Virus record (IMG/VR): IMGVR_UViG_3300012952_000020
Span: 1-64,000 of that record
Source: a virus
Direction: 5' to 3' (one strand)
DNA length: 64,000 nucleotides
The position numbers and the translations under genes were made by a program. The notes beneath the pieces are model-generated. The model was given only the letters and a program-made list of their open reading frames with translations. It made no database searches and was not told where the DNA came from. Positions 1 through 62,572 of this stretch are shown in pieces. Every line of letters begins with the position of its first letter. Positions within the stretch are counted from its first letter, which is position 1.

Positions 1-3000
1 AATCTTTGCGTTGTCCCTCCATGACGGTTTGCGCTGGTCAGGATCGCCGGGAAGCCTGCGTGGGATTCCGTGTAGGTTCATGTGGTGCTGGTTATCACGC
101 CACCCTTCTGGATTGAGCGTACGAGAGTCCTCTTGCACACCTGTAAGTAGGTCCATTACCCGACGACGGTCGGCTGCGTTGCTCAATGAGGGGAAACGGT
201 CCTGATCGCTCAACATGCGCCTCATGGCTCTACGATTGCCTACCGGCATTTCCTCTACGTTGATGCCGTGACGGTCTACCTCCACTTGGAGGGCGTCACG
301 GTTGGTCCTCAAACGCTCTTGCAGACGCGCACGGTCTGGACCCCGGAAGTTTTGGGACAGAGCCTTGTATCGCTCATACTCCTCCTCGATGGCTGCCGCG
401 TTGCGAGACTGCCTGTCCGTCATTGTTACCCTGCGGAGGTACTGGTCCTTTTCCTCTTGGGAGCGCACTGTTCCGTCAGGGTGAGCATCCCGAAACGCAT
501 TGTTCAGCCGAACGTCCAGAGGCGACTTACGGGTATAGGTGTACTCTGCGATGGCTTGCCGCAGAATGGCTACTTGGGTTGCGTTGGTAATATCCGAGTC
601 CATCGTCAAGCCTTCATATTGACTTGTGAACTCTGCTTTCGGTGGGAGTGCTCCCGGTCGGAGCCAGTTTGATATATCCCAGAACTCTCCGATGGTGTTC
701 TTTGCCGCTGTACCCGTCAAACCTACTCGAAACCTAATCGAGCCGCCTGTCAACTCTTGTAGCTGGTCTGCCTTGAAGGAGCCAGCCGCCGTGCTCTGAC
801 TGGTCATCTGGTGGATCTCGTCAATCGCCATGTAGTCAAACGTATTCTTGGCTCGACCGGCAGAAGTCGCCAAATCGTCGTGACCCATGACTGTGTATAG
901 AACGCCTCTACGACGGTCCTCTGCAAAAGACGCCTCTTGCCCCGCTGCGTCCTTGGGCATCCCCTTTACTTGCACTCTTGCCTGACGCTTTGTGATCTCG
1001 GCTTCCAGTTCGTTTGCGTAGTCGTCGCCAACTACGCTTCTATCAGGCACACGACGGGCTGTGCGTTCGTACCTCTTGTATGTAGCCTCGGTCCAAGTTT
1101 CCCCGGAAGCGATAGCATCCTCATACGAATCGTAGAACCGCTTGGTTCTGCCTGACCGAGTGGTGTACTCCCTGTAGTTGGGTACGCCGCCGAGAACTGT
1201 GTCCCTGACGCCCTGCTGCACCACTCGTCGGGTTCCGTTTACCTTTCCCTCGCTGACATAGACTACAACATCACCCTCTGGGGTGAACGCCATGATCTCC
1301 TGTGCCATCTGCGTACGGAGAGGTGCCGGAACGCCGATGCAGCCTGCTCGCACTCTGCCTTGGGAGTTGAGGTCTGCGATAGACGCTACCACCGTAGGTG
1401 TCTTACCGAGTCCAGCCCCAAAGTGTAGAAGACGCCCGTCACCACCGGCTTGGGCATCGTTGATCGTGTCGATAAAGTTGAGGCCCGCGTGCTGCGGCAT
1501 ACTGCCCGGTGTCAGTCCGTCCAGCTTGAAATCGAACTTTGCAGGTTTGCCATCCCTCCAACCATAAAATGCGCCGGTAGAGCGTACGCCCCCAATATCA
1601 GTACGCAGGTTCCTCTCTGCCTTGATTTCCTCTGCCCGCTGGTTTGCGTTGCCTCGCTGCCTGCGGAGCCTCCAGTACTCCCGTAGAACCTCGTCGGGGA
1701 TCTCTGCCGAGAACCTTCCGCTGTCTCGGACAATACGGTAGTTGTCCCTCGATGGGGGCATACCCAAGTCCCTCAACTCCTGTAGGACCACCCGAGCATC
1801 GCCTGTCTTCGCCGTGTTGATACCCCTGCGGGGGTTGGCGAGGTGCCTCTCCAACGCTTGCACAGTGTTGATGATGGAGTTTGCCTGCTGCAACTCACTC
1901 TGGAACGAGGCGTGTATCTTTGCCGATTCTGACGCAACGGTAGACCTCGACAGTGTGGGGTTGTTCTCCAGATGGGCAATCAACTGGTCCCTTCGAGCCG
2001 CTGCTTGGTGTAGGTGCTCCGCTACCCTTGGGGCAAGCGTTTCCTGTAGCGCCAAAGTCCTGTGGTGCGCCTTACGCACTGCGTTGGGGTGGATGCTCGC
2101 CGCCAATAGCCCTGCGGTTCCGTCCACGCCCAGTGCTCTCACCATCTTGCTATCAAACGCATGGGGCGGGAAGCCCAGTTCGACTGCGAGCCTGTTCATG
2201 TTGGCTACGTCGAGATCCGTAACGTCCGAGATATTCATGATCTCGTCAGGGATCTGCCCACGCTCTACAAGGTTGTCGAGGTAGTTGTCCTCCAGCGCCT
2301 CGGCAGGGTGCCAAATCTCCTGCATACACATACAGTTTGGATGCGGCACCTGTGGGAACTGGTCACGTAGGAATAGCCCTTGTAGGTCTACTTGACCGGG
2401 ATCTGCTCCAAGTTGTCGGAGTCTATCAACAACACCGGGTCCGGTTGTGACCGCCAGTACCTCGCATACCTCACCCCCTCCATACCATCTGTGGTTCGGG
2501 GATAGCTTGTAGTACATGAACTCGAACCCGACCTTTCTCGCCAGTTCGGTGTTTGCCTCCTGTAGTGCTCGCCTCTGCTCCGTTCTTTGAATACGCGCCA
2601 GTGCTTTACCAACAGAGCCGCCATCAACACGAGTACGACCGGGCATAGGATCGTGTAGACCACGACGTAGGTGATCCATCGCCCTCGCACGTTCCTTGTT
2701 CGACTGTGCGTTGATGTACTGCTCATACCGTCCTCTCGCTCTACCCGCTTCTCTTGTAAGACGGTCGTTTAGCGACTTATCTGTACCCGGAAACGGATCG
2801 TTCATCACAGTGTTGGTTGCCTGATTCGCCAAAGCGGTCATTTCAGACTTAGACGGAAGTGGCACGCCCATACGACGAAGAACGTCCATCTGCGCCCGCA
2901 TTTCCCGTGTGGTAGCACTGCCGATGGTTTCCCGAATGTTAGCCCCTTGACGCTCAAAGTCCCTGCGAACCAATCGGTCAGCTTGGCTACGAAGCTCCGC

Positions 3001-3345
3001 TTGACGCACTGGGTCGAGAGTGCCTTCTGGTAGGATGCCGCCGCCGCGTTCCGCACTTTGACGCAGCTTGTTGAACTCAGCCGTGGAGCCTCTAAAGGTT
3101 CCCCGCAGAGTCGCCTCCTCCCGAGCAAGGTTGCCCAAGGTGATTCGGCGGGAATCGTTCAACTGGTCGAACTCGCTGATCCGGGGCGGGTCGGGGTTGG
3201 ACGGGTCTACGCTGATTTGAATAGACTCGCCCGTAATGTCCTGAACTGTGTGAGTCTCGCCTACAGAACCACGGAGAGCAGGAACATAACCTCGGTCATT
3301 GTTCTCCGCTGGCGTGGGTTGTTGCTGTGTCCACTCATCGGCCAT
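1..3345 (-). CDS. MuF-like minor head protein fused to an SNF2-type SF2 helicase/ATPase (3' end runs off the window; not in ORF track)
   Basis: Hand-translated open frame from ATG 3345 to base 1. PHPNCMC (2326-2346, cf. MuF HPNCRC); HFGAGLGKT (1399-1425); MAIDEIH (811-831); LTGTAAKNTIGEFWDISNWL (661-720). Directly downstream of portal. Confidence 0.8.
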   Translation of the reverse strand, partial: MADEWTQQQPTPAENNDRGYVPALRGSVGETHTVQDITGESIQISVDPSNPDPPRISEFDQLNDSRRITLGNLAREEATLRGTFRGSTAEFNKLRQSAERGGGILPEGTLDPVRQAELRSQADRLVRRDFERQGANIRETIGSATTREMRAQMDVLRRMGVPLPSKSEMTALANQATNTVMNDPFPGTDKSLNDRLTREAGRARGRYEQYINAQSNKERARAMDHLRRGLHDPMPGRTRVDGGSVGKALARIQRTEQRRALQEANTELARKVGFEFMYYKLSPNHRWYGGGEVCEVLAVTTGPGVVDRLRQLGADPGQVDLQGLFLRDQFPQVPHPNCMCMQEIWHPAEALEDNYLDNLVERGQIPDEIMNISDVTDLDVANMNRLAVELGFPPHAFDSKMVRALGVDGTAGLLAASIHPNAVRKAHHRTLALQETLAPRVAEHLHQAAARRDQLIAHLENNPTLSRSTVASESAKIHASFQSELQQANSIINTVQALERHLANPRRGINTAKTGDARVVLQELRDLGMPPSRDNYRIVRDSGRFSAEIPDEVLREYWRLRRQRGNANQRAEEIKAERNLRTDIGGVRSTGAFYGWRDGKPAKFDFKLDGLTPGSMPQHAGLNFIDTINDAQAGGDGRLLHFGAGLGKTPTVVASIADLNSQGRVRAGCIGVPAPLRTQMAQEIMAFTPEGDVVVYVSEGKVNGTRRVVQQGVRDTVLGGVPNYREYTTRSGRTKRFYDSYEDAIASGETWTEATYKRYERTARRVPDRSVVGDDYANELEAEITKRQARVQVKGMPKDAAGQEASFAEDRRRGVLYTVMGHDDLATSAGRAKNTFDYMAIDEIHQMTSQSTAAGSFKADQLQELTGGSIRFRVGLTGTAAKNTIGEFWDISNWLRPGALPPKAEFTSQYEGLTMDSDITNATQVAILRQAIAEYTYTRKSPLDVRLNNAFRDAHPDGTVRSQEEKDQYLRRVTMTDRQSRNAAAIEEEYERYKALSQNFRGPDRARLQERLRTNRDALQVEVDRHGINVEEMPVGNRRAMRRMLSDQDRFPSLSNAADRRRVMDLLTGVQEDSRTLNPEGWRDNQHHMNLHGIPRRLPGDPDQRKPSWRDNAKI

Positions 3346-3349
3346 CTAC

Positions 3350-4957
3350 CTATTCCCCTGATTCAGCCTTCTGCTGCTTTGTGATGGAACCCTTCTCGCC
3401 TCGGGCATCGGGGTTTCCTCTTTCGGGGTCGGGGTTGCCGGACCTTCGTGGGTCGCCTGCTCCGTAGTTCTCACCGGGCGTGTATAGCTTCTGCCCGACT
3501 TCAAACTCCATTTCAGCCTGCTCCATTGTTTCGTCCTTGAAGTCGTCCATGACCTTATCGATCTCGGACTGGGATAGACCCATCTTCTCCAACTCCATCC
3601 GCTTCGTGGACAGACCCAACTGTAGACGCTTGGCAGCGCGGTCCAGTTCCATAGTCTCGTCCCGTGGCAGCGGGTCAGGGAACACAATGTCGTTCCGGTA
3701 CTTGTTTCCATCCAGCTTGGATAGAGCCTTCCCAAACTTGCCGTCCTTCAAGGACGTGATCTTCAAGATCAGACGATTGACTAAACGGAGTCCGAGTCCG
3801 TACGTCTGAATCTTCACGTTACGACGTTCAATCAGGGGGAGATAGCGCATCGCCAATGCAGACCCGGACATGCCGGACCCGGACTCTTGGAAAGCCCCCA
3901 GAAGCCCCAGCGGGATTCCCGCCAGTTCGTGCATCGACTTCTTCACATTCTCAAGGTACTTCAAACTCGATCCGAGTTCGCCCGAAAGAGCCAGATTCGT
4001 CACTGATGCTCCTTCTGGAAGACCCCACATGCGACTTGCCCCCCGTTCAAGGTTGGACAGCTTCGCACCCGTTACGATTGTGACTGGGGAGCCGTGGTAG
4101 TTGATCACGTCAGACACGTCCGTAGACTTCTCGTTGTACTCCTGCTGGAGTGCCAGAATGTCCATGAGGTCTGACTTGCCGTAGTATTCGGACGCTACGG
4201 GATAGTTGGGGATGTGAACAATCGGGATCTCCCCGAGAGGGTTGGGGATGGTTTCATCTGGTCGCCCATCGTCGTACATCTTCACGCACTTGTCTGGATA
4301 CCACCGCTCGGCATAGAGCCGAATGTCCAGCTTCTTGCCTCGGTTCAGAGAAACAAACTCCGTGGCTCCGCGTCGTCGCTCATACCCCTTATCGGTGCCG
4401 GTGGCGTAGTGAGGGTACAGGACCAGAATGGAGTTGACCTTCTTACGGTCCACACCCCGAGGACCACCAAAGTCGGGGAAGACGTACTGCGAAGGAAGCA
4501 CGTCCACTCGGGCGTACGGTTCCTCCAGCATATCGTTTTCTTCCCAAGAGACACGCAGGAACAGGTCGCCAGTGACAGATCCCATCTGCCCCATTTCAAA
4601 GCATAGGGACTGGAGCCTATTGCGTCTCCAAGTCTCGTCCAGCATGTGACGAATGAACTCTCGGTCCTCGTCTTCCCGCTGTGGGGTGGAGGGGTCGTCG
4701 GGTACTGTGCAACGGAAGCCGTGCTTGAATAGGAAGTTGACATGAGCGTCCACAAACGCTCGGCAGTAGTTGACAGTCACGAACGGTTCGTTCTGGTCCC
4801 GAGTCCAATCCCACTGGTCGCCCTTGTAGAACCGCCAGAGTTTCCGGTACTCGTTCATACGCTTTGAATGAGCAACTTCCACGTCGTGTGCAAGCTGGTA
4901 TACCTGTGCGTCTTTGGACCCGAATGGTGTTCCCGCTATTACTGCTCTTGTCGCCAT
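3350..4957 (-). CDS. Portal protein (SPP1 gp6-like)
   Basis: 535 aa; VNYCRAFVD, NPLGEIPIVHIPN, GKSDL, SGSAL motifs; downstream of terminase. Confidence 0.9.
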   Translation of the reverse strand: MATRAVIAGTPFGSKDAQVYQLAHDVEVAHSKRMNEYRKLWRFYKGDQWDWTRDQNEPFVTVNYCRAFVDAHVNFLFKHGFRCTVPDDPSTPQREDEDREFIRHMLDETWRRNRLQSLCFEMGQMGSVTGDLFLRVSWEENDMLEEPYARVDVLPSQYVFPDFGGPRGVDRKKVNSILVLYPHYATGTDKGYERRRGATEFVSLNRGKKLDIRLYAERWYPDKCVKMYDDGRPDETIPNPLGEIPIVHIPNYPVASEYYGKSDLMDILALQQEYNEKSTDVSDVINYHGSPVTIVTGAKLSNLERGASRMWGLPEGASVTNLALSGELGSSLKYLENVKKSMHELAGIPLGLLGAFQESGSGMSGSALAMRYLPLIERRNVKIQTYGLGLRLVNRLILKITSLKDGKFGKALSKLDGNKYRNDIVFPDPLPRDETMELDRAAKRLQLGLSTKRMELEKMGLSQSEIDKVMDDFKDETMEQAEMEFEVGQKLYTPGENYGAGDPRRSGNPDPERGNPDARGEKGSITKQQKAESGE

Positions 4958-4978
4958 ATCCGGCCTCCTGATTCAGCA

Positions 4979-5007
4979 ACCGTATCAGGATTGCCTGTGT
5001 TTGTCAA
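4979..5007 (-). promoter_or_regulatory. Sigma70-like promoter for portal
   Basis: TTGACA-N17-TACGGT. Confidence 0.55.
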
Positions 5008-5012
5008 GAACC

Positions 5013-5240
5013 CTACCACTTGCTACCTCGGCTCCGCTTCTTGTCCGGTGGGGTCCATCCTTCCTCCCTCATATCACCCTGTATCTCACGGCGAAAGGAC
5101 TTGTCCCACAGATGTTCGAGCCAAGTTTTCACTGTATCCGGGTGAAGGTCGGGCAAAGACTTAGAACGTATTGCTCGACGGACAAACCTTACATCGCTTC
5201 CCGCAAGTGCGGCAACTTGTTCTTCCGATAAGTCCTTCAT
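5013..5240 (-). CDS. Hypothetical protein
   Basis: 75 aa; ATGA overlap with terminase stop. Confidence 0.6.
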   Translation of the reverse strand: MKDLSEEQVAALAGSDVRFVRRAIRSKSLPDLHPDTVKTWLEHLWDKSFRREIQGDMREEGWTPPDKKRSRGSKW

Positions 5241-6937
5241 CTACGTTTACCTCGTCTGCCGCCTTCACGGAACCAAGCCTTTGATCTCTGGTAGTTACCA
5301 CCGATATTCAGACCTCTGCCCATGAGCGGGTTAGCGATCACCTCGGCATCGCCGTAGGCTCCGTGCTGCACAGCATAGTTGAGCAACATCAACGAATCCG
5401 GGTAGTCATCGTGAGCCGAGCCGCCTCCTGATTTAGACCCCTTCGGAGCACGAATGTCCATGTACTTGCCCTTCCACCGCTTCTCCAGATCATAGAGTTG
5501 CTGAACGAAGCGACGGTACTTGGTCATCTTACGAGCGCCTTGTCCCGCAGGGTAGGTCAGACGTTTGGCACGTAGATCCTGATAGAGCAACTGGTATCCA
5601 CGGTGTTTCGACTTCTGATTGAATACGAACGGGATGACGTGTACGTCCTTTAGATCCGACCTAAGACGCGATGCGATGGGATCGCCTCGTCCGGTAGCAT
5701 CTACGATCAATGTCCCTACGTTATAGTTCCGTAGGAACTCCAGTATTTGCGGATACTGAGACTCGTGGTCGTCACCTTGGATCTCCAGCCAGTTCATTAC
5801 ATGAACGTAGTATCTATCTTCACCTGAGACTCGTTGCGGGTTGTCCCACCATACACGACCGACCGTAAGGACCGTAGAGTCATGGGAACGCCCAATGTCG
5901 AGTGACGCTACTTGGTTCACCGTAGACCGATCTTGCGTCCCCGGATAATCTGGACGGACAAAGGTTAGGAGATTGCCGCTCTTGTCCTTGGACTTGAGTA
6001 TGTCCCGCTTCTTGATGCCACAGGAGTCCAGCATCTCTGGAGGGATGAATACACCACGCTCCAATAGCCAGTGAAGCCTGTAGGACATGCGGAAGTCGTC
6101 CGAGTCATAGCCCAGTCGCTCTACCTCTTTGTCGATGTACTTACGATACCGAGGATTCCATCTGGCAGCGTGTTCGTAGTCGTACTCGAAATGGGTCTGC
6201 ACTTCTCCCGGTTTCAGTATTGCTGCCTTCTTGCGCCCACGCTCGCACGCATCATAGAAGTCGTTACGGTGAGGCGAGGGAGTGCCGATCTTCACGATGG
6301 ACGCGTTAGTAGCCGCACCCATTGGGTGGATGGACTTACGAATCTTGTAGTTGCCGATGTCCTGTGTCTCTTCACACAAGATCAGGTGATAGGTCTTCCC
6401 CTCGATGTGGGACTGTGGACCCGCAGAGTTACAGTCACAGAAGCTACCGTTAGGAAGGCGCAACGACTTTCTTCCCGGTCGTAGGCGTATGCCAATATCA
6501 GGGTCAGCCAAGACCTGCGCCATGTCTGCGCTGTTCATACGAGCAGCCATTCGACTGTGCATGATGGCACCCAACTCGTAGGTAGGAGCGAAGATGCCGC
6601 ACCAGAACCCATCCTTGTATTTGTTGATACGGTCGTCCTCGTTCAAGCCGGGTACGGTCGCCAAGGTCGGTAGGATCACCATTAGACCCACTGTGACCAC
6701 CGCAACCGTTTCGGTCTTGCCGGACTGACGCGCAAAGAGAGCCGTGATCTCCTCACCCTCTCCCAGAATCACCGATTGACAGATTCTACGTCCAAACTCT
6801 TGTTGGTAGGGGTACAGCGAAATGCCGCTCGCCTCCATACAGAACTTGAACGCCTTTTCTGCCACGTCCAGAAGCTCATCCCTCGAAAGGGTATGACGCT
6901 CCTCTGCCACCTTGTACTGCTCAATAGCTTGGGCCAT
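5237..6937 (-). CDS. terL: Terminase large subunit
   Basis: LYPYQ, ARQSGKT Walker A, GTP coupling motif, nuclease acidic motifs LDIGRSHD, DATG, HDDYPDS. Confidence 0.93.
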   Translation of the reverse strand: MAQAIEQYKVAEERHTLSRDELLDVAEKAFKFCMEASGISLYPYQQEFGRRICQSVILGEGEEITALFARQSGKTETVAVVTVGLMVILPTLATVPGLNEDDRINKYKDGFWCGIFAPTYELGAIMHSRMAARMNSADMAQVLADPDIGIRLRPGRKSLRLPNGSFCDCNSAGPQSHIEGKTYHLILCEETQDIGNYKIRKSIHPMGAATNASIVKIGTPSPHRNDFYDACERGRKKAAILKPGEVQTHFEYDYEHAARWNPRYRKYIDKEVERLGYDSDDFRMSYRLHWLLERGVFIPPEMLDSCGIKKRDILKSKDKSGNLLTFVRPDYPGTQDRSTVNQVASLDIGRSHDSTVLTVGRVWWDNPQRVSGEDRYYVHVMNWLEIQGDDHESQYPQILEFLRNYNVGTLIVDATGRGDPIASRLRSDLKDVHVIPFVFNQKSKHRGYQLLYQDLRAKRLTYPAGQGARKMTKYRRFVQQLYDLEKRWKGKYMDIRAPKGSKSGGGSAHDDYPDSLMLLNYAVQHGAYGDAEVIANPLMGRGLNIGGNYQRSKAWFREGGRRGKRR

Positions 6938-42080: not shown

Positions 42081-43376
42081 CTACAGATACCCGAGGGCTG
42101 CGTACTTCTTCCGGCGACTACCCCAGTAGGCTCCGAGCACGTCAATACGGGCATCTACAAAGTCGAGCACCACTGGCTCCTGCTTCTCCGGGTGGTCACG
42201 CAAGATTCGCCCAACCGCCTGTGTCACCGAGGTCTTCGGGGTAGCCAACAACAGGGTGTCGAGGTCTGGAATATCCAACCCTTCCTGTGCCATCTGGTAC
42301 GTCGCCACGATGACCTCTGCCTTTGCCGCCTCGTCCAGTTCTTCCTGCTTCATGCCTCCGACGTACTTCGACACAAGCATGTCGTCCCATTCCTTGTCCT
42401 CAAACAGACCGGCCAAAGACATGTGCATAATATCGACATGCTTCCTCCGCTCCGTGAGAATCAGGATCTTCCTTCCCACCGCTGCCGCTCGGACTGCGTA
42501 GTGTAGGACGGACACTGTGCGTCGGTCATCCTCTGCAATCAACGAGATCAGCTTTCCTGTGTTCACCTCTCCGTTCCACCGGAACTTGTATTCCTCTGCC
42601 GGGATGTAGGTACTCAACTCGATCTTGTGGATCGTCGGGTTCAGTTGCTCCGTCCTCGGCATCGAGTGGGCCAATGGTCCGATGTGCTTGAAGAACACGC
42701 ACTGCATACCATCCCTACGGTTTGGGGTAGCCGTAAGTCCCAACCGGAACTTGGCTCCAAACTGCACAATGGCACTCTGCCATGTGGGTGCAGCGAACCG
42801 ATGCACCTCATCCGTGATGATCGTACCGAACGAATCGTACAACTCCTGCGGGTACTCCCTGTTGCTCGTAAGGGACTGGACCATAGCAATCACGAAATCA
42901 CAGTCCTCATCTGGAACCTTGTCCCGTTGCCAAACACCTACCTTGGCGTCCGGCAGGAACTCCTCGATTCGGTCCTTCCACTGGTCCATGAGGAACGTCT
43001 TGTGTACGAGCACGCATGTTCTTCTGTTCAACCTACGTGCGATCTCCAATCCCATCACAGTCTTGCCTTGCCCGCACGGAGCGTGGAGGATTCCCCCGAA
43101 GGACTCTTCCAAAACACTCATAGTGTCTTGCACTGCTCCCGGTTGCTGACCTCGCAACCCAATGGGTTCCAATCCAGACTGCATGGGGTTTCCGTCTACT
43201 GTTTCCACCTTCTCCGAGAACCGCACATGAAGACTGCGTGGGATGAGCACCCAGCCTCCCTCTTGACGATACAACTGCACGTCCTGTCCGTCGTCCGTGC
43301 ATACGGTCAACTCTGCTTGCAGAGCCGGTGTCCAGTGTTCCGGTGGCAACTTGAACCACCCCTTTTGCCTACTCAT
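42081..43376 (-). CDS. SF2 DExH helicase (UvsW/XPB-like)
   Basis: APCGQGKT, DEVH, LTATP, EGLDIP, QAVGRILR. Confidence 0.92.
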   Translation of the reverse strand: MSRQKGWFKLPPEHWTPALQAELTVCTDDGQDVQLYRQEGGWVLIPRSLHVRFSEKVETVDGNPMQSGLEPIGLRGQQPGAVQDTMSVLEESFGGILHAPCGQGKTVMGLEIARRLNRRTCVLVHKTFLMDQWKDRIEEFLPDAKVGVWQRDKVPDEDCDFVIAMVQSLTSNREYPQELYDSFGTIITDEVHRFAAPTWQSAIVQFGAKFRLGLTATPNRRDGMQCVFFKHIGPLAHSMPRTEQLNPTIHKIELSTYIPAEEYKFRWNGEVNTGKLISLIAEDDRRTVSVLHYAVRAAAVGRKILILTERRKHVDIMHMSLAGLFEDKEWDDMLVSKYVGGMKQEELDEAAKAEVIVATYQMAQEGLDIPDLDTLLLATPKTSVTQAVGRILRDHPEKQEPVVLDFVDARIDVLGAYWGSRRKKYAALGYL

Positions 43377-45265
43377 TTTGCTGCCTCCCAGTTAGGGCCA
43401 CTTGACGGTTCAGCGATGAGAGGTACGCGCAGCTTCACTGCTGCTTCCATTTCCCTCTGGATAAGTCCTCCGACCGTATCCACCAAGTCATCCCGAACCT
43501 CAAAGATCAACTCATCGTGGACCTGCGATAGCATGAAGGCACCGTCCCTCCAGTAGCCCTCATCCTTGAGAGCACGGTCGATGTTCCTCATAGCCACCTT
43601 GATCACGTCCGAAGCCGATCCCTGAATCTTGGTATTCACTGCCTTGCGCTCCGCTGGTCCCTTCACCTTCCAGTCATCCGACTTGATCTCGGGAAGATAC
43701 CTTCGCCTACCCAACAGGGTTGACGAATAACCAGTTGCACGGGCGAGCGTGATAACCCTGCCTTGATACTCTTTCACTGCGCTGTACTTCTGGAAGTACC
43801 GCTGCCACCAGACTTTCGCCTCGTTGACGGGAGCCTTGATCTGTGCTGCCAAGGTCTTCGGCGACATACCGTACATCAGACCAAAGTTGATTGCCTTGGC
43901 GTGCTGCCTCGTACAACCACAAGCATCTGCCGTCTGCTGGTGAATGTCACCTCCTTCCGTGTACACCTCCAGCATGGTTTCATCCTTGGAGAAGTGAGCC
44001 ATCAGCCGCAACTCCACTTGAGAGTAGTCACAGGTCATCATCGTGAACCCGTCCCTCGGAATGAACGCCTCCCTGATACTGACTGACGACTTACGTGGGA
44101 TGTTCTGGAAGTTGGGGTTCCTACACGAGAATCGCCCTGTGCGTGTACCGATCTGTCGGAACGACGCATGTACGCGACCATCAGCCTGCACGTCGTCAAT
44201 CAGCGACTCGGTGTACGTGGACCGTAGCTTCTGAGCCTTGCGATACTCCAAGATGAGTTCCGCAACCTCCTGTCCTGCCTTGGTCGTGCCACGAACGCCT
44301 TGCGCCCACTTCTGGACGTGGCTCTCCTTGGTCGAGTAGTACCCGTTCTTCCCTTTGGCTCCAATCGGGGGCCACCAACATAGGTGCTGGATGAACGTCC
44401 GGCAAAGCCACTGGGTAGAACCAATGTTTGCCTCTCCGTCCACGCCATTCGTCCGAAGCAGCGTACGGATGCGTTGGAGGATGACCGTCATACGGTTCTG
44501 CAAGTCCGTGGAAACCTTGGACAGATGGTCAACGTCAAGACGCATACCGTTCTGCTCCATTTCTTCCAAGATGAAGATGATCGGCATCTCCAACTCCCAG
44601 AACACCTTGACGCTATGCTCACCCATAGCCGCCAGCTTCCTGCCGAGGTCCGTGGATAGCCTGTCCAACCACTTCACGTCATCGCACGCATACTGCGTCA
44701 TCGGTCCAACTGGGATAGCCCACACGGGAAGCACGCCCTTGCGTCTGCCACCTTGGACCCAGTTGTCCAGTAGGGTCGTGAACTCCAACATGGAGTACCC
44801 GTACATTTCCTTCACCAAGCCTTTCAGCCCGTGACGCTTCGTGTCCGTCTCCGCAGTCACCCACGAAAGGACCATAGTGTCACCGAGCCGAGCCTTGATG
44901 GTCGAGGGATCGATGCCGTCATTACGCATAGCCTTCAAGTCGAACTTCCAGTTATGCGCCCAAATCTCCCTGTCCTCTACGGAGAAGATTTCCTTCAAAG
45001 CCTCAAGCGCCAAGTCCAGCGGTGCGTTCTGAAACGCCGTGGACGATGCGGCATCGGGGAGCCTTTGTCCTGCTGGTCGGTGCCTCATCGGGACGTAGTA
45101 AGCCTGATCCCGTGTGGCTACCGAGAAGCCGACAATCTGCCGGTCGAACGATAACCCGTCCGTTTCCGTATCAAAGGCGAGCCAGTTCTCGCCAGCCAAC
45201 TTAGCCATCATCGCTTTGAGCGCACGACCTGTGTTGACTATCTGGTCTGTCTTATACTGTGTCAT
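43373..45265 (-). CDS. polA: Family A DNA polymerase with 3'-5' exonuclease
   Basis: FDTET, HNWKFD, YACDD; DYSQVELR, AKAINFGLMYG, QVHDEL. Confidence 0.96.
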   Translation of the reverse strand: MTQYKTDQIVNTGRALKAMMAKLAGENWLAFDTETDGLSFDRQIVGFSVATRDQAYYVPMRHRPAGQRLPDAASSTAFQNAPLDLALEALKEIFSVEDREIWAHNWKFDLKAMRNDGIDPSTIKARLGDTMVLSWVTAETDTKRHGLKGLVKEMYGYSMLEFTTLLDNWVQGGRRKGVLPVWAIPVGPMTQYACDDVKWLDRLSTDLGRKLAAMGEHSVKVFWELEMPIIFILEEMEQNGMRLDVDHLSKVSTDLQNRMTVILQRIRTLLRTNGVDGEANIGSTQWLCRTFIQHLCWWPPIGAKGKNGYYSTKESHVQKWAQGVRGTTKAGQEVAELILEYRKAQKLRSTYTESLIDDVQADGRVHASFRQIGTRTGRFSCRNPNFQNIPRKSSVSIREAFIPRDGFTMMTCDYSQVELRLMAHFSKDETMLEVYTEGGDIHQQTADACGCTRQHAKAINFGLMYGMSPKTLAAQIKAPVNEAKVWWQRYFQKYSAVKEYQGRVITLARATGYSSTLLGRRRYLPEIKSDDWKVKGPAERKAVNTKIQGSASDVIKVAMRNIDRALKDEGYWRDGAFMLSQVHDELIFEVRDDLVDTVGGLIQREMEAAVKLRVPLIAEPSSGPNWEAAK

Positions 45266-52407: not shown

Positions 52408-53754
52408 TCAAAAACCGTGGAAGCCTGTCGCCTCCCTGATCTCGTCAGTACGGTCTTCTCCATATAGAACATTCCCATCCCAGATGATGGTCCCATCCGA
52501 TATGGGTACGGGGAACATGCTTACGTGCTCCTCTCCGTCAGGTGTGGTGGTCTTGTCCACAACTCCTAATCCTTGCTGCCAGTTCGATCTCTTACTGGAG
52601 CCGGGTACAGCGCCGTCGAGTGCTGTGATGCAGCCGGGTGACATGGAGTAGATAAACCTGCGACCGTCCTTTGTCTGGATAGTCCTCGACGCCATTTCCA
52701 CTCTGTGAATGTGACCGAAGACTGTGGAGTGTGACGCTTCCCTAATAACTGCCTGCGTGGTTGCGCCTGACTTGCCTCGGACCACAACGCCGTGAAGGAT
52801 ATGCACGGTGTCGAACAGCCAGAAGTCCCCTTCGGGGTAGGGGCCGAGGTACTCAATGTCCAGCGACTCCAAGTCCAGCAGGGCAGGAACCGACAGTGCT
52901 GGAAGGTCACGATTCACGGCAGACAAATCCACGGCTTCCTTGACTGAATCACACATGATCTTCGCCAACCGAGCCTCATGGTTTCCTTCCAAGTAGATGA
53001 TCCTCGCTGCGGGAGCGGCGAGCCTCAACTGTGACAGCCACCAGTGCAGTTCCAGCAACGTAGGTCGGGTCGTGAACGACAGATCGGACGTGGTTGTGTA
53101 CTTGCCGAACGGTGCGAAGTCACACATGTCACCGAGCATGACAATGTACTGGGGTTGCATACGTTGAGCGACTTGGATTGCCAAGTCCCACGCCTTGCGG
53201 TCGTGCAGAGGACGGTACGTGTTGTCTCGCCGATTTACACGGTATCCGTTCTGCGAGTCCGGTATGATCAGCGCCCGCTCTACGTCACGCTCGGAGCCAC
53301 GGCTTGGCTGACGAGGTAGGGGTTTGACAGCCTTGACAGGTTCCAGCATGAACGCCGGTATGCGCTCCAGCCAGACCTTGATCTGCCACATAGGAACCTG
53401 ACCCTCCTTGGTCATGGCATCCCACTTGTTGGCTACCCAGTTCTTGATTGCCCACTTGTTACGGTCAACCTTTGCCTCTTTCAGCAACTCATCAAGTGAC
53501 TGGATTCTGCCTCGATTACTGATGACGGTCTGATCGCCGTCAGACTTTACGGTGATGTTCTTGCCTGCATCGGACATATCCGACACGTCATCTACAGCGG
53601 TAAGATCCGTCGCTTCGTAAGCCTTGACCTTCTCCCGCTGAATACGTCGATACACGGTCGAGCGGTTGATGCCCAGCATCTCCGTGATCTCCTTTACCGT
53701 GTAGCCTTGCTGTTTCAACTCCCATGCGGAAGCTGACTTTGAACCTTTCTTCAT
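52408..53754 (-). CDS. HTH + calcineurin-like metallophosphoesterase
   Basis: EMLGINRSTVYRR; IPDSQ, LGDMCD, EGNHE, LHG, GHIHR. Confidence 0.85.
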   Translation of the reverse strand: MKKGSKSASAWELKQQGYTVKEITEMLGINRSTVYRRIQREKVKAYEATDLTAVDDVSDMSDAGKNITVKSDGDQTVISNRGRIQSLDELLKEAKVDRNKWAIKNWVANKWDAMTKEGQVPMWQIKVWLERIPAFMLEPVKAVKPLPRQPSRGSERDVERALIIPDSQNGYRVNRRDNTYRPLHDRKAWDLAIQVAQRMQPQYIVMLGDMCDFAPFGKYTTTSDLSFTTRPTLLELHWWLSQLRLAAPAARIIYLEGNHEARLAKIMCDSVKEAVDLSAVNRDLPALSVPALLDLESLDIEYLGPYPEGDFWLFDTVHILHGVVVRGKSGATTQAVIREASHSTVFGHIHRVEMASRTIQTKDGRRFIYSMSPGCITALDGAVPGSSKRSNWQQGLGVVDKTTTPDGEEHVSMFPVPISDGTIIWDGNVLYGEDRTDEIREATGFHGF

Positions 53755-56878: not shown

Positions 56879-59800
56879 CTACTGATGGCCCAAGATGTGG
56901 AATGTCTCAAGAGCCTCTCCGTGGTGTTCTCCAGTAGCATCCTCACCGTAGGACGGACGCTTCTCGTTCGGACGGTTCACCTCAACAGTAGCGTTGATGT
57001 GGCAACCACTGAACGGTGGGTTCACGTTATTCGGTACTGTTCCGTTGATCATCCGCTGTCCGTATCGCCCTGTGTATAGCACGAACAGAATCTCATGATC
57101 TCCGGGTGCGGTCAACTCCTCCACTGTGGGCATCTGATCCATCAGTGTTCCAATGTCGCCTTCCTCATCCAGACCATGTGCTGCTGCGTTCTCTCGGACG
57201 TACCTCAACTCGGACACCAGATCGATCTCGATGCCACAGTTGTTCTGCAACCTGTCCGTTTGAGCAACCTTGACCAGCGCACCATCACCGACACCGTGTT
57301 GGGTGTCCTGATAGGTGGCAGAGGCAAAGTCGAACGGGTCAGCGACATAGCAGTCACCGTGTGGCGCATTGGCGAACTCGTTATTGGCGAACTCTGCTGC
57401 ACTCACATCCGTTTCCGTCATCGGGTCGGTATCGTACAAGTACCCGGATGATGCAGGGACTCCCTCAACGTAGCCGCCGAGGTTGTCACTGATCATGGGG
57501 TACAGGTGGCCGGTGTACGCGTGATTGGGGTGGGCGTTGAATGGACCACCCCCACCGCCAGCAGCCGGGTGGATAGACTGGAAGTGAAGGAACGGCTTGT
57601 CTTCCATAGTGTCGGGTGCTGTGGGCCACTGGACCGCAGAACCGTTCTGCCTATCTCGGACAAGAAACAACTCCGTGAGGGATTTGGGAGCACTCGAACG
57701 ACGAGTGTTGGGGTGTCCACCGCCTTGATAGGACGGGGAGTAACCACCACCGGGGCGAGCATGAAGGACGCGGAAAGAACAGTTCCAAAGTAGCTTTTGC
57801 GCCAGACCCGCATTGAACAACGCAGTGTACGTGTTCATCAGGGGTTGCCACTCTACATCAGCAGTTCCGTTCCACGCAGCCTGCACCTCATGTTCCATTA
57901 GCTGGAAGGCATCGTGACAGGTGTTGCGGGGATCGCCGTCTTCAAGTGTAGACGGTACTGTGTCGAAGCCGTTTGGCAGGTTGGTGCCTGTCTTCCAATC
58001 GAACGAACCCATCGAGAACGTGAGTGGGTTTGCGTAGAAGGTACGAGCGCCATCGTAGCTGGAGTCGAGCACGATACCCGTACCAGTGTCACCGATGAAC
58101 TGCGTATCCACGTCGAAGTCAGGCCCTTGGCCGGGGATTGCGTTTCCGGGTCCGTCAAGCATGTCGCCGTTGAACTCTGAATCGTCATCATCAGACACAG
58201 ACCAAGGGGAGGTGGCATCCCAAGTCAGCTTCAACACATCCGCTGCTTCCATAGCATCACAGATAGCGGCCAAGGTCGTGGTGCCAATCTTGGCACGCAT
58301 GACCGGAGCCTGCCAGTCGTAAGCTGACCGTGCGAACAGTTGGTTGTCGTCGGGGAACCCGATGTAGCCACGGTTGTAGCCTTGAGTGCCTTGACCAAAT
58401 CCAACGCCAGTGTAGTACGGACCAGTTGCTTCCGCTGCGGAGTACCAGTTGTTCTGGATCTCCACAATCTTGTCGATGAGCGGGAAGCCTTTGAACAAGT
58501 CCTCTCCTTCGGAGGACGACGGGTGGGTACGGAACACGGGATGTAGATCCCACATATCGCCGCCCGTGTTCTCCGAGTAGTACCCCGAGTCGTCGTAGTA
58601 AATGTCACCGGAGTTCTCGCCCTTCAAGTACCACTTGAACGCAGGCATGAACGTAGGACCGGGCTTACCGTAGACACTGAATCCGGGGTACGCAAGCTGA
58701 CTCGTCACACCGTCAGGAACAAACGGGAACGCTGCCAGATTGTTCGGGACTGTGATAGTCGCCCCATCCACGTTGACCGTACCAGAGTACGTTGTAGACG
58801 CCGTGCCGGGGTTGGTGTTGTGATTACCAAGACGAGGAATCTGCGACCATAGCTGCGTCGTCCCCAGTTCGTTTGATGACGCGAAGTCGTCCAGACCCCA
58901 GTAGTCCAAATCGTTTACCGATTTCAGACCTTGTGTGGATGACTGCTCACCCAAGAACTGATCCGTGGGTTGCGTCGTGATCGTGGGGATAATCAGTGAC
59001 CGCTCACCCCATCGGTTGTAGACGGGATAGGCTACGCCATCAAACTGTGGGTAGGAATCCGCGCCGCCGAACAGGGAAGCGTTCTCGTCCCAGTCACCGT
59101 GAGGGAACCTAATGGATTCCATGAACGGGTGATACCAGTGGACGAATGGTTGGAACGCATCGGGGATCGGAGTGTCGCGCCAATCTCGGTCGCCAATCTC
59201 CAAAGCCACGTTGGGGTCCATTGTTCCGAAGGCTGCGTTTTCGCCGCTGTTACCTCCGGGTTGCCCGAGGTCCGGTGACGTAGCGATGATCTTGGGAAGA
59301 CCGTCCTCATCAATCAGGTTCTCCGTAATCCACTCCAAGTTGACTCGTTCAATGAACGAGAGCAGCCCGTCAAGCATGGACATTCGACCTTGCAGGACGT
59401 TGTGCTGGTGCTTGGGCAGGGTTGCCCAGTGCGTCAGAGACAACGGTTCAAACCGAACGAACAGGTTGAGAGTGTCAACCAAAGCGTTGGTCTTTGTGCC
59501 TGTGGGAGCACCGTCAGCGTCCAGCGTTTCGGGGCCGGGATAGTAGTCGCCAATGTGATAACGAAGGCGAGCCACGGTGCATCGGTTCTCCCATGTGTCG
59601 AGTGGGTTCACCTCGTCCGTGGGGAGAGTAGGGAACCGGCCCCAAGGACCAGCTTCCATATCCATACGCACGTCAGCCTCGATAACGTCCTGATTCACGT
59701 CTGCGGGGTTTGACACATCCGCTACGTTGATAGCGTGATGACCCCAACGGATCAGATCGTTAGCCTCCAGACCTTCGCCCGGAGTTTCATCAGCGTCGCC

Positions 59801-62572
59801 TTCACCCGGTGGGAAGTTGGACAAGCTGGCAGGCGTGGCGACTGTGCCGTCCGAAAGGACACCAGCTCCAACTCCGTAAGACTGTAGATTCACTGGGGAG
59901 TTGCCGTGCTCGTCTTCCTCGGGGTGTCCGTACGGTTGGCTAATGTCCTGACCACTGACCATAGAGGTGTCGAGGAACGCTGCCGCCGAAGCCATGATGA
60001 AGCCGTCGTAGGAGTTGCCGCTAACATCGCCAGCGCCGTCCTGTGACTGCTTCCAAGTACGAGGTAGTGAATCAGCCTCGGTGGTGTCGTAGTACATCAC
60101 CCGCCAAGGCGCAGCCACATGGTAGTTGAACATGTCCATCTGGACATGCCCTTGTGTCTTGATTGCCAGCTTTCGGAACATCAACGCTTGCCGCATGAGT
60201 TCCGCTTGTCGCTGACCGTCAGCCGTTCCACGCTGCGTGAAGTCCGGCTCCGTGGATGAACCCGTTGCCTTTGCATAGTCCTGTGCTGCAAAGTTGTAGA
60301 AGCCCCAGCCTTGCTCACTGTCTACGGTGATCTCATCACCGCCACGAGTAATATACTTACCGTATCCGGGGATGAACTCTCCAGACCACCAGTGACCTGA
60401 TCGAACGCCATCCTCGATTGTGACTACACCTGTGCCTGCGTCCTGCGAGACACCTCCGACCAGCGGGTCGATTGAGCATACGGTTCCGACAGACTTATCG
60501 GTCGGGTTGAGTGACGTGTTGTCAGGAGTGTACGCGAACACTTCCGCAGACTGTCCCGAAGCGAACAGCGCCGTAGTATCTCCGTTTGCAACGTACTGAT
60601 TTGACGAGGGTAGTCCGTAGGCTGTGTCCTCGATGAGGTTGCCGGAGTTGTCACGCTGCTGCCCGAAAGCCCACTGCGCTGACATACCCATCTGGTGTCC
60701 AAGACCCGACTGGTTCAGATACCAGTTGGTAAGACTGGAGATCCCGCAACCGAGGGACTGGTACTGGAGAGGGATGTTTCCGTGTCGGTCATACAGCGCC
60801 GTGATGCCACGAGCAATCGGCGCACCGCCGCCCGCTTTCTCAGCCGTAGTCATGCCTACGACCGCTGTAGCGTTTACAAGTGAGCGAGACATTTCCGCTA
60901 CACCCATGACAATCTTGGGTGGCTGCATCATGCCGCCCATAAACAGGAGGCCAGTATCTCCGGGGTTCATGCCCCCATTAGTGACGATGTTGTTTTCACG
61001 ACCGTACATTCCCACCATTGGGATAGACATGATTCCGCCTCCATCATCCCAAAGAGGGTGCAGGAGGCCGGGAATAAAGTACGGAGATAGAACGTCGTCG
61101 TCGTGAAGATCCGTGGAGGTTGGGTCCATCCGCTTCCAAGGAGGCATAATCCAAGCGAGCGGTACAATGTGGGACTCTGCCCCGCCACAAGTCTCTTGAA
61201 GCAGACAGTGAGCCGCAGTCCACCAACGGTCAGACGAGAACTCAACGTCGCCTGTCCCGAAGCCTTCCGAAATCTTCATAGCAAACGACGGAGTTGCGCC
61301 GAAGTTGCCGGGGCCTTGATCGAACCACTGTGATACTGCGGTGCCTGACCCGTCGGGGTCAATGGCAGGAACCTGTGTAGCGGTATGCCGCAAAGCCTCG
61401 ATGGGGTCTACTGCATAGTCAACGATCAAGGAGTTACCTACCGAGTGGTAGTGAGGCTCCTTGTTCATGTCATCCAGTAGGCGTGCGAGGTGCCACTCTG
61501 TGATCGGAGACAGACCCGGCATGTCCGTGGTCATGCTCCACTTGGAGAGGCACATACGAACGCAGTAACGAACCTGTGTTCGGTGGGTAGTCTCCATGCC
61601 GAGAGTAACGTCCAGAAGATCCTCATCCTCGTCAGACGAAATGTCCTCATTGAAGACTTGAACGTACATCATCGGGTAGCGCACAAGACCTGCGTAGGTC
61701 TGGTCAGCAGCCTGCGCTCCGGTCATGGCATCGAACTGGGCTTTCCAGTTTACAAGGTCGTTGCCCGGAATGATGTAGTACTCATCACCTTGAGCCAAAG
61801 CAGCCGGTAGATTCGTGAGCCACTGCACAGAGGTAGCCGTGTAACCTGTAATGTCACGGACCTCGCCAGCGTTCGCACCAGTGACGAAATAGATTCGACA
61901 CGCAGACTCTTCTACTCGAAACTGAAAAGCAGCCGGTGTCGCTGTGCCTGCTGGAAGCGGCTCGTCGTGAACCGGACCTGTCGGTCCCGAAACTACAACT
62001 TCACGGTAGCCGCCTGCCTCGGTCGATGTGCCGAGCAGGTTGTGACTTGCCGTGAACATCTTATTCTCATCGAACATTTCGTCGATGAGTCCTGCCCCGG
62101 CTGCCGTGACCTTGCCGTGGAACATGTGGTTAGCCCACGGGCGCATCGTGGCCCCTGCTGCTCCAAGGTCAACGATCCGGTGCCAGTCAAAGATGATCTG
62201 CGATTCCAGATTGGCCGTGTCGATCTCGTTACTGTTGTCGAGCACTCCGAGGGGCGTAAGGAGAGAACCCATCGTGACTGCAAAGTTACAGTTGTTCGCA
62301 TCGACCTCACCCTCGATACCGCTACCTCCGATAGCACGAGAGACTGGTACAACAGTCCACTGCCTGTTACCGAGTACGGTCTGTGGGGTTTGATCGCCGC
62401 GAACAGCCATCTGTGCGACGTGCTTGGTCTGATTAGCTGCCAAGTCCTGTGCGTCGTTCAGATCCACATCGAGGACGGGCGACCCCTGCTGGAAGCGCAC
62501 GTCCTTATAGTTCTTACTCTCGTCAACCGTACCCGTTCTGGACAGGTTCGGCTTGTTTGTAGGGTTTGCCAT
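56879..62572 (-). CDS. Large tail fibre/baseplate-associated protein (DUF6519-like N-terminus)
   Basis: 1897 aa; YKDVRFQQGSPVLDVDLNDAQD and EDEDLLD..ETTHR motifs; Gly/Asp-rich. Confidence 0.75.
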   Translation of the reverse strand: MANPTNKPNLSRTGTVDESKNYKDVRFQQGSPVLDVDLNDAQDLAANQTKHVAQMAVRGDQTPQTVLGNRQWTVVPVSRAIGGSGIEGEVDANNCNFAVTMGSLLTPLGVLDNSNEIDTANLESQIIFDWHRIVDLGAAGATMRPWANHMFHGKVTAAGAGLIDEMFDENKMFTASHNLLGTSTEAGGYREVVVSGPTGPVHDEPLPAGTATPAAFQFRVEESACRIYFVTGANAGEVRDITGYTATSVQWLTNLPAALAQGDEYYIIPGNDLVNWKAQFDAMTGAQAADQTYAGLVRYPMMYVQVFNEDISSDEDEDLLDVTLGMETTHRTQVRYCVRMCLSKWSMTTDMPGLSPITEWHLARLLDDMNKEPHYHSVGNSLIVDYAVDPIEALRHTATQVPAIDPDGSGTAVSQWFDQGPGNFGATPSFAMKISEGFGTGDVEFSSDRWWTAAHCLLQETCGGAESHIVPLAWIMPPWKRMDPTSTDLHDDDVLSPYFIPGLLHPLWDDGGGIMSIPMVGMYGRENNIVTNGGMNPGDTGLLFMGGMMQPPKIVMGVAEMSRSLVNATAVVGMTTAEKAGGGAPIARGITALYDRHGNIPLQYQSLGCGISSLTNWYLNQSGLGHQMGMSAQWAFGQQRDNSGNLIEDTAYGLPSSNQYVANGDTTALFASGQSAEVFAYTPDNTSLNPTDKSVGTVCSIDPLVGGVSQDAGTGVVTIEDGVRSGHWWSGEFIPGYGKYITRGGDEITVDSEQGWGFYNFAAQDYAKATGSSTEPDFTQRGTADGQRQAELMRQALMFRKLAIKTQGHVQMDMFNYHVAAPWRVMYYDTTEADSLPRTWKQSQDGAGDVSGNSYDGFIMASAAAFLDTSMVSGQDISQPYGHPEEDEHGNSPVNLQSYGVGAGVLSDGTVATPASLSNFPPGEGDADETPGEGLEANDLIRWGHHAINVADVSNPADVNQDVIEADVRMDMEAGPWGRFPTLPTDEVNPLDTWENRCTVARLRYHIGDYYPGPETLDADGAPTGTKTNALVDTLNLFVRFEPLSLTHWATLPKHQHNVLQGRMSMLDGLLSFIERVNLEWITENLIDEDGLPKIIATSPDLGQPGGNSGENAAFGTMDPNVALEIGDRDWRDTPIPDAFQPFVHWYHPFMESIRFPHGDWDENASLFGGADSYPQFDGVAYPVYNRWGERSLIIPTITTQPTDQFLGEQSSTQGLKSVNDLDYWGLDDFASSNELGTTQLWSQIPRLGNHNTNPGTASTTYSGTVNVDGATITVPNNLAAFPFVPDGVTSQLAYPGFSVYGKPGPTFMPAFKWYLKGENSGDIYYDDSGYYSENTGGDMWDLHPVFRTHPSSSEGEDLFKGFPLIDKIVEIQNNWYSAAEATGPYYTGVGFGQGTQGYNRGYIGFPDDNQLFARSAYDWQAPVMRAKIGTTTLAAICDAMEAADVLKLTWDATSPWSVSDDDDSEFNGDMLDGPGNAIPGQGPDFDVDTQFIGDTGTGIVLDSSYDGARTFYANPLTFSMGSFDWKTGTNLPNGFDTVPSTLEDGDPRNTCHDAFQLMEHEVQAAWNGTADVEWQPLMNTYTALFNAGLAQKLLWNCSFRVLHARPGGGYSPSYQGGGHPNTRRSSAPKSLTELFLVRDRQNGSAVQWPTAPDTMEDKPFLHFQSIHPAAGGGGGPFNAHPNHAYTGHLYPMISDNLGGYVEGVPASSGYLYDTDPMTETDVSAAEFANNEFANAPHGDCYVADPFDFASATYQDTQHGVGDGALVKVAQTDRLQNNCGIEIDLVSELRYVRENAAAHGLDEEGDIGTLMDQMPTVEELTAPGDHEILFVLYTGRYGQRMINGTVPNNVNPPFSGCHINATVEVNRPNEKRPSYGEDATGEHHGEALETFHILGHQ

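Follow-up and report, generated by a model that had tools for sequence, protein, structure and literature searches.

The first 64,000 nucleotides of the virus record IMGVR_UViG_3300012952_000020, called the window below, begin with a minus-strand gene that encodes a protein of 1359 amino acids (aa) composed of three parts, a MuF-like domain, a helical stalk and an SNF2 ATPase. Translation of window positions 3345 to 1 yielded a single ATG-started frame of 1115 codons free of stops, and the longest open reading frame (ORF) in the other frames over positions 1–3345 has 180 aa. The stop codon of the portal gene located upstream (TAG, 3352–3350) is followed by four nucleotides (gtag) and then by the start codon of the fusion gene (3345–3343), 9–13 nt upstream of which the sequence GGGGA is found. 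A preliminary description of the window, made from the letters of the sequence, had reported an open minus-strand frame of at least 1115 codons starting 4 nt past the portal stop and missed by the ORF track. Both the ORF listing and the translation bear this out; the frame was missed because it lacks a stop at its open end, so that ORF lists requiring a stop codon skip it.

Window position 1 is base 1 of a linear virus record of 77,536 bp, estimated to be 78% complete, and the fusion gene was therefore cut there by the assembly. Extension past the window, as proposed in the preliminary description, completed the gene to 1359 codons. Protein P0002 of the protein collection has 1359 aa and is identical over all 1115 residues encoded in the window, and the metagenome contig L012, which overlaps window positions 1–123 with 123 of 123 bases identical, carries the final 244 codons in its positions 1–858, ending in TAA. 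The window thus holds codons 1–1115 of 1359 (82%), and motifs IV–VI of the ATPase lie beyond it. Conservation over the full length, at 37–44% identity, was found in four other proteins of 1235–1301 aa. The in-frame stop between the domains that would have spoken against a fusion was not seen, the gene being continuous; a split or frameshifted gene pair is ruled out by the lack of a stop and by the retention of the fusion in 17 clusters, and a chance ORF by the conservation at the protein level. The parts of the gene and its upstream neighbours are listed in Table 1.

Table 1. Positions of the fusion gene, its parts and the adjacent head-module genes in the window
Feature	Positions	Strand	Basis or remark
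MuF-like::SNF2 fusion gene, 5' 82%	1..3345	minus	runs off contig start
MuF/gp7-like head-morphogenesis domain (distant homology), residues ~20–348	2302..3288	minus	stand-alone homologs; coordinates from residue numbers
HPNCMC motif, residues 335–340	2326..2343	minus	alignments
Middle region, residues ~349–620	1486..2301	minus	structure model; no family match
SNF2 lobe 1 and start of inter-lobe helical insert, residues ~621–1115	1..1485	minus	Pfam, fold; lobe 2 outside the window
Motif I / Walker A GAGLGKT, residues 643–649	1399..1419	minus	alignment
Motif II DEIH, residues 842–845	811..822	minus	alignment
Motif III LTGTA, residues 876–880	706..720	minus	alignment
SPP1-type portal gene, 535 aa	3350..4957	minus	SPP1_portal E 9.6e-23
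Large terminase gene, 566 aa, head-module start	5237..6937	minus	weak Pfam; homologs in L004, L006

SNF2 module, head-type domain and stalk

The C-terminal part of the protein (residues ~620–1290) is, as judged from its sequence, a complete SWI2/SNF2 ATPase with its catalytic motifs intact; such enzymes move along duplex DNA but do not unwind it. The part encoded in the window alone scored 26.1 bits against the Pfam family SNF2-rel_dom (cut-off 24.9), and P0002 matched Helicase_C with 55.1 bits (E 1.1e-14; cut-off 23.5). Both families, searches for which had been suggested beforehand, were recovered from all five close fused proteins, with best E-values of 1.2e-10 for SNF2-rel_dom and 1.1e-16 for Helicase_C. 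The best PHROG of the fusion protein is phrog_62 'DNA helicase' (E 8.9e-17), and the helicase matches in NCBIfam were far below their cut-offs. Neither a methyltransferase nor any other enzyme domain was found in Pfam scans of five close and four distant fused proteins.

All four motifs named in the preliminary description are present (Table 1), motif III opening the segment LTGTAAKNTIGEFWDISNWLRPG from residue 876, in which LTGTA continues as ..N...E.W...NWL.P. Together with TRAGSTGLNLQ (motif V) and QREARNWR (motif VI), the motifs GAGLGKT, DEIH and LTGTA are invariant in the five close homologs, and across 40 SNF2 sequences there is no variation in D and E of motif II, T of motif III, G and N of motif V, or Q and R of motif VI. 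Among solved structures, the closest in sequence is the Sulfolobus SNF2/Rad54 core SsoRad54 (1z63; E 1.2e-7). Since the last 244 residues of the window protein lie beyond the window, the helicase of the ortholog from locus L004 was modelled, and Foldseek comparison of that model with the PDB gave at least 500 matches at E ≤ 1e-3, headed by CSB, Chd1, ISWI, INO80 and Rad54 (E 1e-19 to 1e-16). The model has the two-lobe fold with SNF2-specific helical inserts. Thus the SNF2-family ATPase of the preliminary description is real and complete according to Pfam, the motifs, the search against solved relatives and the fold of the ortholog. With SsoRad54, CSB, Chd1, ISWI and phrog_62 the fusion protein shares two RecA-like lobes, SNF2-type inserts and motifs I, II, III, V and VI, at a sequence identity of ~13–17% to the solved SNF2 structures; it differs from cellular and archaeal SNF2 proteins in having its own N-terminal stalk, extra inserts between motifs I and II, and the fusion to a head protein.

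Residues ~20–348 are interpreted as a distant MuF/SPP1-gp7-like head-morphogenesis domain that falls outside PF04233 as modelled. The name MuF-like is used because PHROG matches, family comparison with hhalign, fold and gene position agree while the Pfam model Phage_Mu_F fails; the 'MuF' of the preliminary description accordingly holds as distant homology and not as a Pfam profile match. Run exhaustively against 1.84 billion representatives, phmmer gave 144 matches at E ≤ 1e-3, about 90 of which are stand-alone proteins of ~300–330 aa that cover query residues ~20–348 alone and end at residues ~341–350, just past the HPNCxC motif. Among 61 such stand-alone relatives, 26 matched phrog_1657 'head morphogenesis' (best E 9e-13), seven phrog_115 'minor head protein' (best E 9e-9), seven phrog_4728 and two phrog_19443; SPP1 gp7 itself has phrog_115 as its top PHROG (1.5e-66), followed by phrog_4728 (5e-24) and phrog_19443 (9e-21). 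Because profile searches with single sequences were not significant, the remote link to MuF proteins required a comparison of family with family. Alignment by hhalign of the 61 stand-alone sequences with 22 sequences of the gp7 family gave E 1e-4 and a score of 42.3, whereas the 39 scored column shuffles (40 were run) reached at most 19.8, with a lowest E of 0.09, and the reversed alignment scored 19.2. With a looser cut (mact 0.1) the two families are colinear across 235 columns, and the comparison pairs RTEQ.R with RTEGHR, YWRLS..H with W..D.R..H, and HPNCMC with (D)INCRC of the MuF-like and gp7 families, respectively; NCRC is thus the counterpart of HPNCMC in the SPP1 gp7 family.

The likeness to SPP1 gp7 and Mu gp30 (PF04233) thus extends to the order of the motifs RTE..R, W..H and NC[RM]C, to the shared phrog_115, phrog_4728 and phrog_19443, to gene position right after an SPP1-type portal and, gp7 having 308 aa, to the size of the stand-alone form. 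In contrast to gp7 and Mu gp30, the domain is too diverged for the Pfam model, its family has the additional invariant residues C294, H285 and H335, and the fusion protein carries ~1000 further residues. Residues H285, C294, H335, C338 and C340 are invariant across 65 aligned sequences, which hints at a putative metal site. An AlphaFold model of residues 1–630, built from the 65-sequence alignment, had a mean pLDDT of 86.7, and Foldseek comparison with BFVD gave 39 matches at E ≤ 1e-3, 24 of them with a description. In 18 of these 24, the description names a minor capsid protein, a protein of capsid or head morphogenesis or a MuF-like protein, so that the resemblance to gp7 includes fold matches to viral 'minor capsid' models; further matches are two capsid maturation proteases, a type of protein frequently fused to MuF in actinophages, and a phage ADP-ribosyltransferase of 1192 aa.

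Several results weigh against the reading of this domain as a head protein. The Phage_Mu_F search called for in the preliminary description matched none of five fused proteins at E ≤ 1 and had no hit in the window protein at E ≤ 0.1, so that as a profile match the assignment formally fails; the gathering score of PF04233 is 29.6 bits, and SPP1 gp7 and Mu gp30 match it at 7e-33 and 6e-32. Phage_Mu_F is also absent among the 25 families listed for the 61 stand-alone relatives, of which at most one could match, and a six-frame scan of the 77.5-kb record returned no match, the control being positive in eight of 14 genomes. NCBIfam likewise gave no MuF match. The main PHROG of the family, phrog_1657, is matched by neither gp7 nor Mu gp30 at E ≤ 0.01, the profile of the stand-alone family against single SPP1 gp7 or Mu gp30 was not significant (E 0.11 and 0.099), and the probability that hhalign assigned to the family comparison was 58%. 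The BFVD matches reach a target-normalised TM of at most 0.58, and their targets are predicted models, not solved structures. Foldseek of the N-terminal model against the PDB had no match at E ≤ 1e-3, and VIA-align wide against the PDB returned generic helical bundles only (top Z 12.4, a dynamin-like stalk, below the meaningful level for helical proteins), so that the PDB fold searches supplied no solved MuF structure for comparison.

The middle region connecting the two domains is predicted to be a stalk. In the model, residues ~350–620 contain long helices (420–460, 467–503 and 551–584) and two small beta hairpins, and the region is bracketed by linkers of low confidence at 364–369 and 584–630. 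It matched no Pfam family, residues 350–625 were without a usable ESM Atlas match, and the comparison with solved structures gave generic helical bundles only. Distant fused forms have a spacer of similar length, ~300–350 aa. Part of the region (about residues 445–620) aligns to some SNF2 proteins without a MuF-like domain (P0097, P0109, P0111 and P0123), and the C-terminal half of the stalk probably belongs to the motor. One of these proteins, P0097 (1358 aa), combines an InPase domain (PF18823, E 7.5e-47) with the SNF2 module and also shares the stalk part over query residues 383–697; InPase is listed as specific to phage polyvalent proteins in the available text of Iyer et al. (2017; PMC5512222).

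Gene order in the head module and the rest of the record

The head module is arranged in the order terminase, portal, fusion gene, small ORF, scaffold and major capsid protein. This is the same order as gp6-gp7...gp11-gp13 of SPP1, with the fusion gene in the place of gp7. The search beside related portals proposed in the preliminary description was successful: the fused gene directly follows an SPP1-type portal in three of three fused loci (the window, L004 and L003). The stand-alone homologs of loci L005 (324 aa) and L006 (321 aa) are also located directly after the portal, and downstream of them a coiled-coil protein and then the major capsid protein (Phage_capsid_3) are encoded. On contig L012, the fusion gene is followed by a 146-aa ORF, a scaffold-like protein of 254 aa and a capsid protein of 317 aa, the latter two being 33% and 50% identical to their counterparts in L005. 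A position next to the portal and upstream of the scaffold and capsid genes is thus found in all five loci with visible context, and the portal is the presumed docking partner of the fusion protein.

The 146-aa ORF (L012 positions 858–1298) begins inside the stop of the fusion gene (TAATG). A homolog of it lies downstream of the fused gene in L004 (33% over 110 aa, E 3e-18), and L003 has a weakly matching one (E 0.006); a small conserved ORF is therefore present downstream of the fusion in three of three fused loci. In the five loci compared, it had no BLAST match to the ORFs of 86 and 90 aa located after the stand-alone genes of L005 and L006. Its product may be a partner of the motor. As to the large terminase, the Pfam matches are weak (Terminase_6C, E 1.9e-4, 21.9 bits, below the cut-off of 22.6; Terminase_6N, E 0.034). 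Its homolog in L006 (positions 3061–5868) has 935 aa and aligns to the 566-aa window terminase from residue 559 onward with 60% identity; it must therefore contain a long extra N-terminal or inserted segment, which is possibly an intein.

Elsewhere the record encodes a DNA polymerase of family A, and its part past the window has baseplate J, gp5-like spike and P2-I-like genes, from which a contractile-tail-type phage with a genome of about 95 kb was concluded. All ORFs of at least 300 aa are on the minus strand, except one overlapping frame at 42627–43556 (plus strand, 309 aa), and the GC skew of the window is negative in all 4-kb bins but one, which indicates a single direction of transcription across the 77.5-kb record. 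A giant ORF of 1897 aa (56879–62572, minus strand), with no Pfam family at E ≤ 1e-3, is located just downstream, in the direction of transcription, of the tail and baseplate genes found on the adjoining piece L002. The first 2334 positions of that piece (record positions 64001–66334, minus strand) encode at least 778 aa of a tail-region protein with five Bact_surface_Ig-like repeats (E 9e-80); it adjoins the P2-I-like, baseplate J and gp5-like spike genes and is probably a receptor-binding fibre. A 448-aa protein encoded about 45 kb from the large terminase gene (52408–53754, minus strand) has an N-terminal helix-turn-helix with an additional match to Terminase_5 (E 7e-7) and might act as a regulator or be a small-terminase-like protein that has been displaced.

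Distribution and descent of the fused proteins

Among 145 proteins collected, the N-terminal domain was detected by a local profile in 17 long SNF2 proteins, each representing one cluster at 50% identity: P0002–P0006, P0008–P0011, P0031, P0034, P0065, P0069, P0082, P0083, P0103 and P0112. All 17 fused clusters are metagenomic and none comes from a deposited phage genome. In 50,697 deposited phage genomes, tblastn with the window protein gave nothing at E 1e-5; at E ≤ 1, P0002 found 365 records, none covering 80% (best place 30%), and the distant fused homolog P0031 found 554 records, again none covering 80%. The other SNF2 proteins retrieved by the query match PHROGs of large phage helicases and methylases (phrog_62, phrog_11801 and phrog_1685).

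The evolutionary tree of the helicase parts (47 parts, without rows spanning fewer than 450 profile positions) places all 17 fused proteins on one side of a branch with an SH-aLRT of 98, and no unfused protein is found among them. The fused SNF2 parts thus appear to form one lineage that, among the rows of this search, is seen only fused. A different picture was obtained for the N-terminal domain (95 rows, those matching under 200 profile positions, P0112 among them, having been dropped): the 16 fused rows are interspersed among the stand-alone ones, parsimony counts 10 changes between the fused and the stand-alone state, of which well-supported branches force at least six, and the fused P0008 is sister to the stand-alone P0035 with a support of 97. 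The simplest reading is that the fusion arose once and that the gene was then repeatedly lost or exchanged as a module. Because the motor is repeatedly present or absent among close relatives, it behaves as accessory cargo of the arms-race type.

The window portal is most similar to those of L005 and L006 (55.5% identity), both with a stand-alone gene, and less so to those of L003 (46.9%) and L004 (45.9%), both with a fused one; the N-terminal domain, in contrast, is closest to that of L004 (41%) and only 29.4% identical to those of L005 and L006. The histories of the portal and of the MuF-like gene disagree on these identities, which suggests that the portal-adjacent gene has been exchanged as a module.

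Possible role in infection and rival explanations

Phages carry several ready-made proteins into cells, such as T4 Alt, P1 Dar (DarB being packaged through DarA/Hdf), the N4 RNA polymerase and MuF toxins, and gp7 enters procapsids through its binding to the portal. In the present gene a head-type domain is joined to an SNF2 motor directly after the portal, and it is therefore likely that the virion contains the motor and delivers it together with the DNA. By analogy it seems probable, with some reserve, that the MuF-like domain directs the protein to the portal and into the head and that the SNF2 motor, delivered with the DNA, acts on the incoming genome. This reading is favoured because MuF fusions have been published as delivered effectors, SNF2 modules occur in virion-borne proteins, and the evolution of the present gene is cargo-like. 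In the available text of Iyer et al. (PMC5512222), MuF domains are described as parts of the head joined to enzymes whose delivery into the host is presumed, and SWI2/SNF2 ATPases are a hub domain occurring in virion-borne polyvalent proteins, e.g. P1 DarB, a virion head component with a helicase that protects incoming DNA. Starting from a single gene of three parts with intact motifs, an SNF2 fold (in the 38%-identical ortholog), a fixed gene position and recurrence, we infer docking at the portal, packaging, ejection and the target of the motor. The MuF/gp7-type domain would dock the protein to the portal, by analogy with gp7, in a few copies per head, and the helical stalk, located between two flexible linkers, would join the head domain to the motor. 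Packaged beside the portal, the protein would leave the capsid with the first DNA at infection and, in the new cell, move along the incoming genome driven by ATP. There the motor could remove or overtake host factors bound to the DNA, for instance defence complexes (restriction or other), silencing proteins and stalled polymerases. The proposal of the preliminary description, a co-ejected translocase from the virion that would remodel or protect the incoming DNA, is plausible and agrees with the published idea of MuF effectors.

The MuF-effector and polyvalent proteins surveyed by Iyer et al. resemble the fusion protein in their N-terminal head-targeting domain, C-terminal enzyme and location of the gene in the head module. 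Polyvalent proteins as presented there have two to 15 effector domains, whereas the fusion has one recognisable enzymatic module and, unlike those proteins, no detected adenine methylase, peptidase, ADP-ribosyltransferase, RNase or toxin domain. The MuF fusion partners named in that text are PBECR, 2H, RelA/SpoT, PRTase and zeta-kinase, not SNF2, and neither helicase nor SNF2 occurs in the available text on MuF polymorphic toxins (Jamet et al. 2017; PMC5576092). The latter proteins, from temperate phages, have a C-terminal toxin and a downstream immunity gene. The C-terminus of the fusion is an SNF2 ATPase and not a known toxin domain, and the gene that follows it in the three fused loci is the small conserved ORF. 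The analogy to P1 DarB drawn in the preliminary description turned out to be a loose one. Both are large helicase-containing proteins with common helicase motifs and a similar Walker A context, but DarB has 2255 aa, an N6-adenine methylase and no MuF-like domain, and the similarity is confined to the motifs (BLASTP, 85 aa at 27%, E 1e-5, and 66 aa at 35%). A methylase-helicase of the DarB type was rejected, no methylase being found and residues 350–620 being modelled as a helical stalk. A search for canonical long MuF fusions with the gp7-family alignment found five proteins, all with ADP-ribosyltransferase domains and none with SNF2, which is weak evidence. No paper describing a MuF-SNF2 fusion was found in the literature searched; the supplements of PMC5512222 and PMC5576092 may list the architecture. 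MuF-enzyme fusions and SNF2 modules in polyvalent proteins were thus known already, and what differs here is a methylase-free MuF-like::stalk::SNF2 protein, an SNF2 lineage seen only fused and a MuF-like domain invisible to Pfam.

Delivery with the DNA also has points against it. A folded ATPase of 150 kDa would have to unfold to traverse the tail. The published SNF2 precedent, in the available text of PMC5512222, acts with a fused adenine methylase, and Pfam detected a methylase in none of the five close and none of the four distant fused proteins. The helicase fold model (pLDDT 88.6, pTM 0.79) is that of the L004 ortholog, 38% identical, and not of the window protein; both trees were built by a 'quick' method from proteins found by searching with this query; and no cultured relative was found among the deposited phage genomes.

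It is highly improbable that the protein is not a head protein at all, i.e. that the helical domain formed by its N-terminal 350 residues is unrelated and has its HPNCxC by chance, and that the gene encodes an ordinary SNF2 helicase of replication or recombination whose location next to the portal is accidental. The missing Pfam Phage_Mu_F match and the generic helical bundles from the PDB fold searches would agree with this, but 26 of 61 relatives match the PHROG for head morphogenesis, hhalign gave E 1e-4 against E ≥ 0.09 for the shuffles, the BFVD matches are mostly minor capsid proteins, and the stand-alone form lies between portal and scaffold or capsid genes, all five loci having the same position. 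The same position could also speak for a role in the producer cell, where the protein, active before or during assembly and tethered to the portal outside the procapsid or in the cytoplasm, would rid the concatemer of bound proteins as it is packaged or remodel DNA for the terminase, and would not be delivered to the next host. The gene is presumably expressed late, with the packaging machinery, since it sits between portal and scaffold; SNF2 enzymes remove DNA-bound proteins, and ATP is present in the cytoplasm and not inside the capsid. This role is nevertheless unlikely, as many related head modules do without a motor, the terminase is itself a strong motor, and, according to the available text of PMC5512222, MuF/gp7 proteins reside inside the head and leave it at infection.

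A motor for genome entry would have its N-terminal domain at the portal or tail exit, or at the leading DNA end, while the SNF2 module pulled the 95-kb genome in at the expense of ATP, replacing the entry driven by RNA polymerase or by pressure in other phages. The architecture argues for it as much as for delivery to the incoming genome, a lineage seen only fused to a head-targeting domain fits a task at the junction of virion and DNA, and no methylase or other effector domain was found. Against it stand the ~80 related N-terminal domains without a motor, close relatives that differ in having one, and L005 and L006, which have the most similar portals and no motor in the visible 10–17 kb. Entry cannot generally depend on the motor because so many related domains and these two loci lack it, and we know of no precedent for such an entry motor, so that this explanation is considered unlikely.

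A bolder version may be put forward tentatively, as a doubtful one. The SNF2 lineage would be a passenger on a portal-binding domain, a virion-delivered, methylation-independent 'DNA sweeper' or entry motor. The stalk would tether the motor to the leading end of the genome, and translocation along the incoming DNA would pull the genome in; defence nucleases, silencers and surveillance complexes would be stripped off before any phage gene is expressed, and the product of the small conserved downstream ORF would be the partner or brake of the motor.

A large family of MuF-like head proteins, with ~80 stand-alone and 17 fused clusters (50% identity) in this search, eludes the Pfam model, and such genes are therefore unannotated in metagenomic phages. 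Counter-defence, silencer removal and DNA entry are the candidate roles of the motor for the incoming genome. If the fusion protein is packaged and ejected, it would offer a simple two-module system for the role of a double-stranded DNA translocase in the first seconds of infection, and if the bolder version is true, it would represent a new class of pre-made anti-defence enzyme, a bacterial-virus counterpart of the chromatin remodelers.

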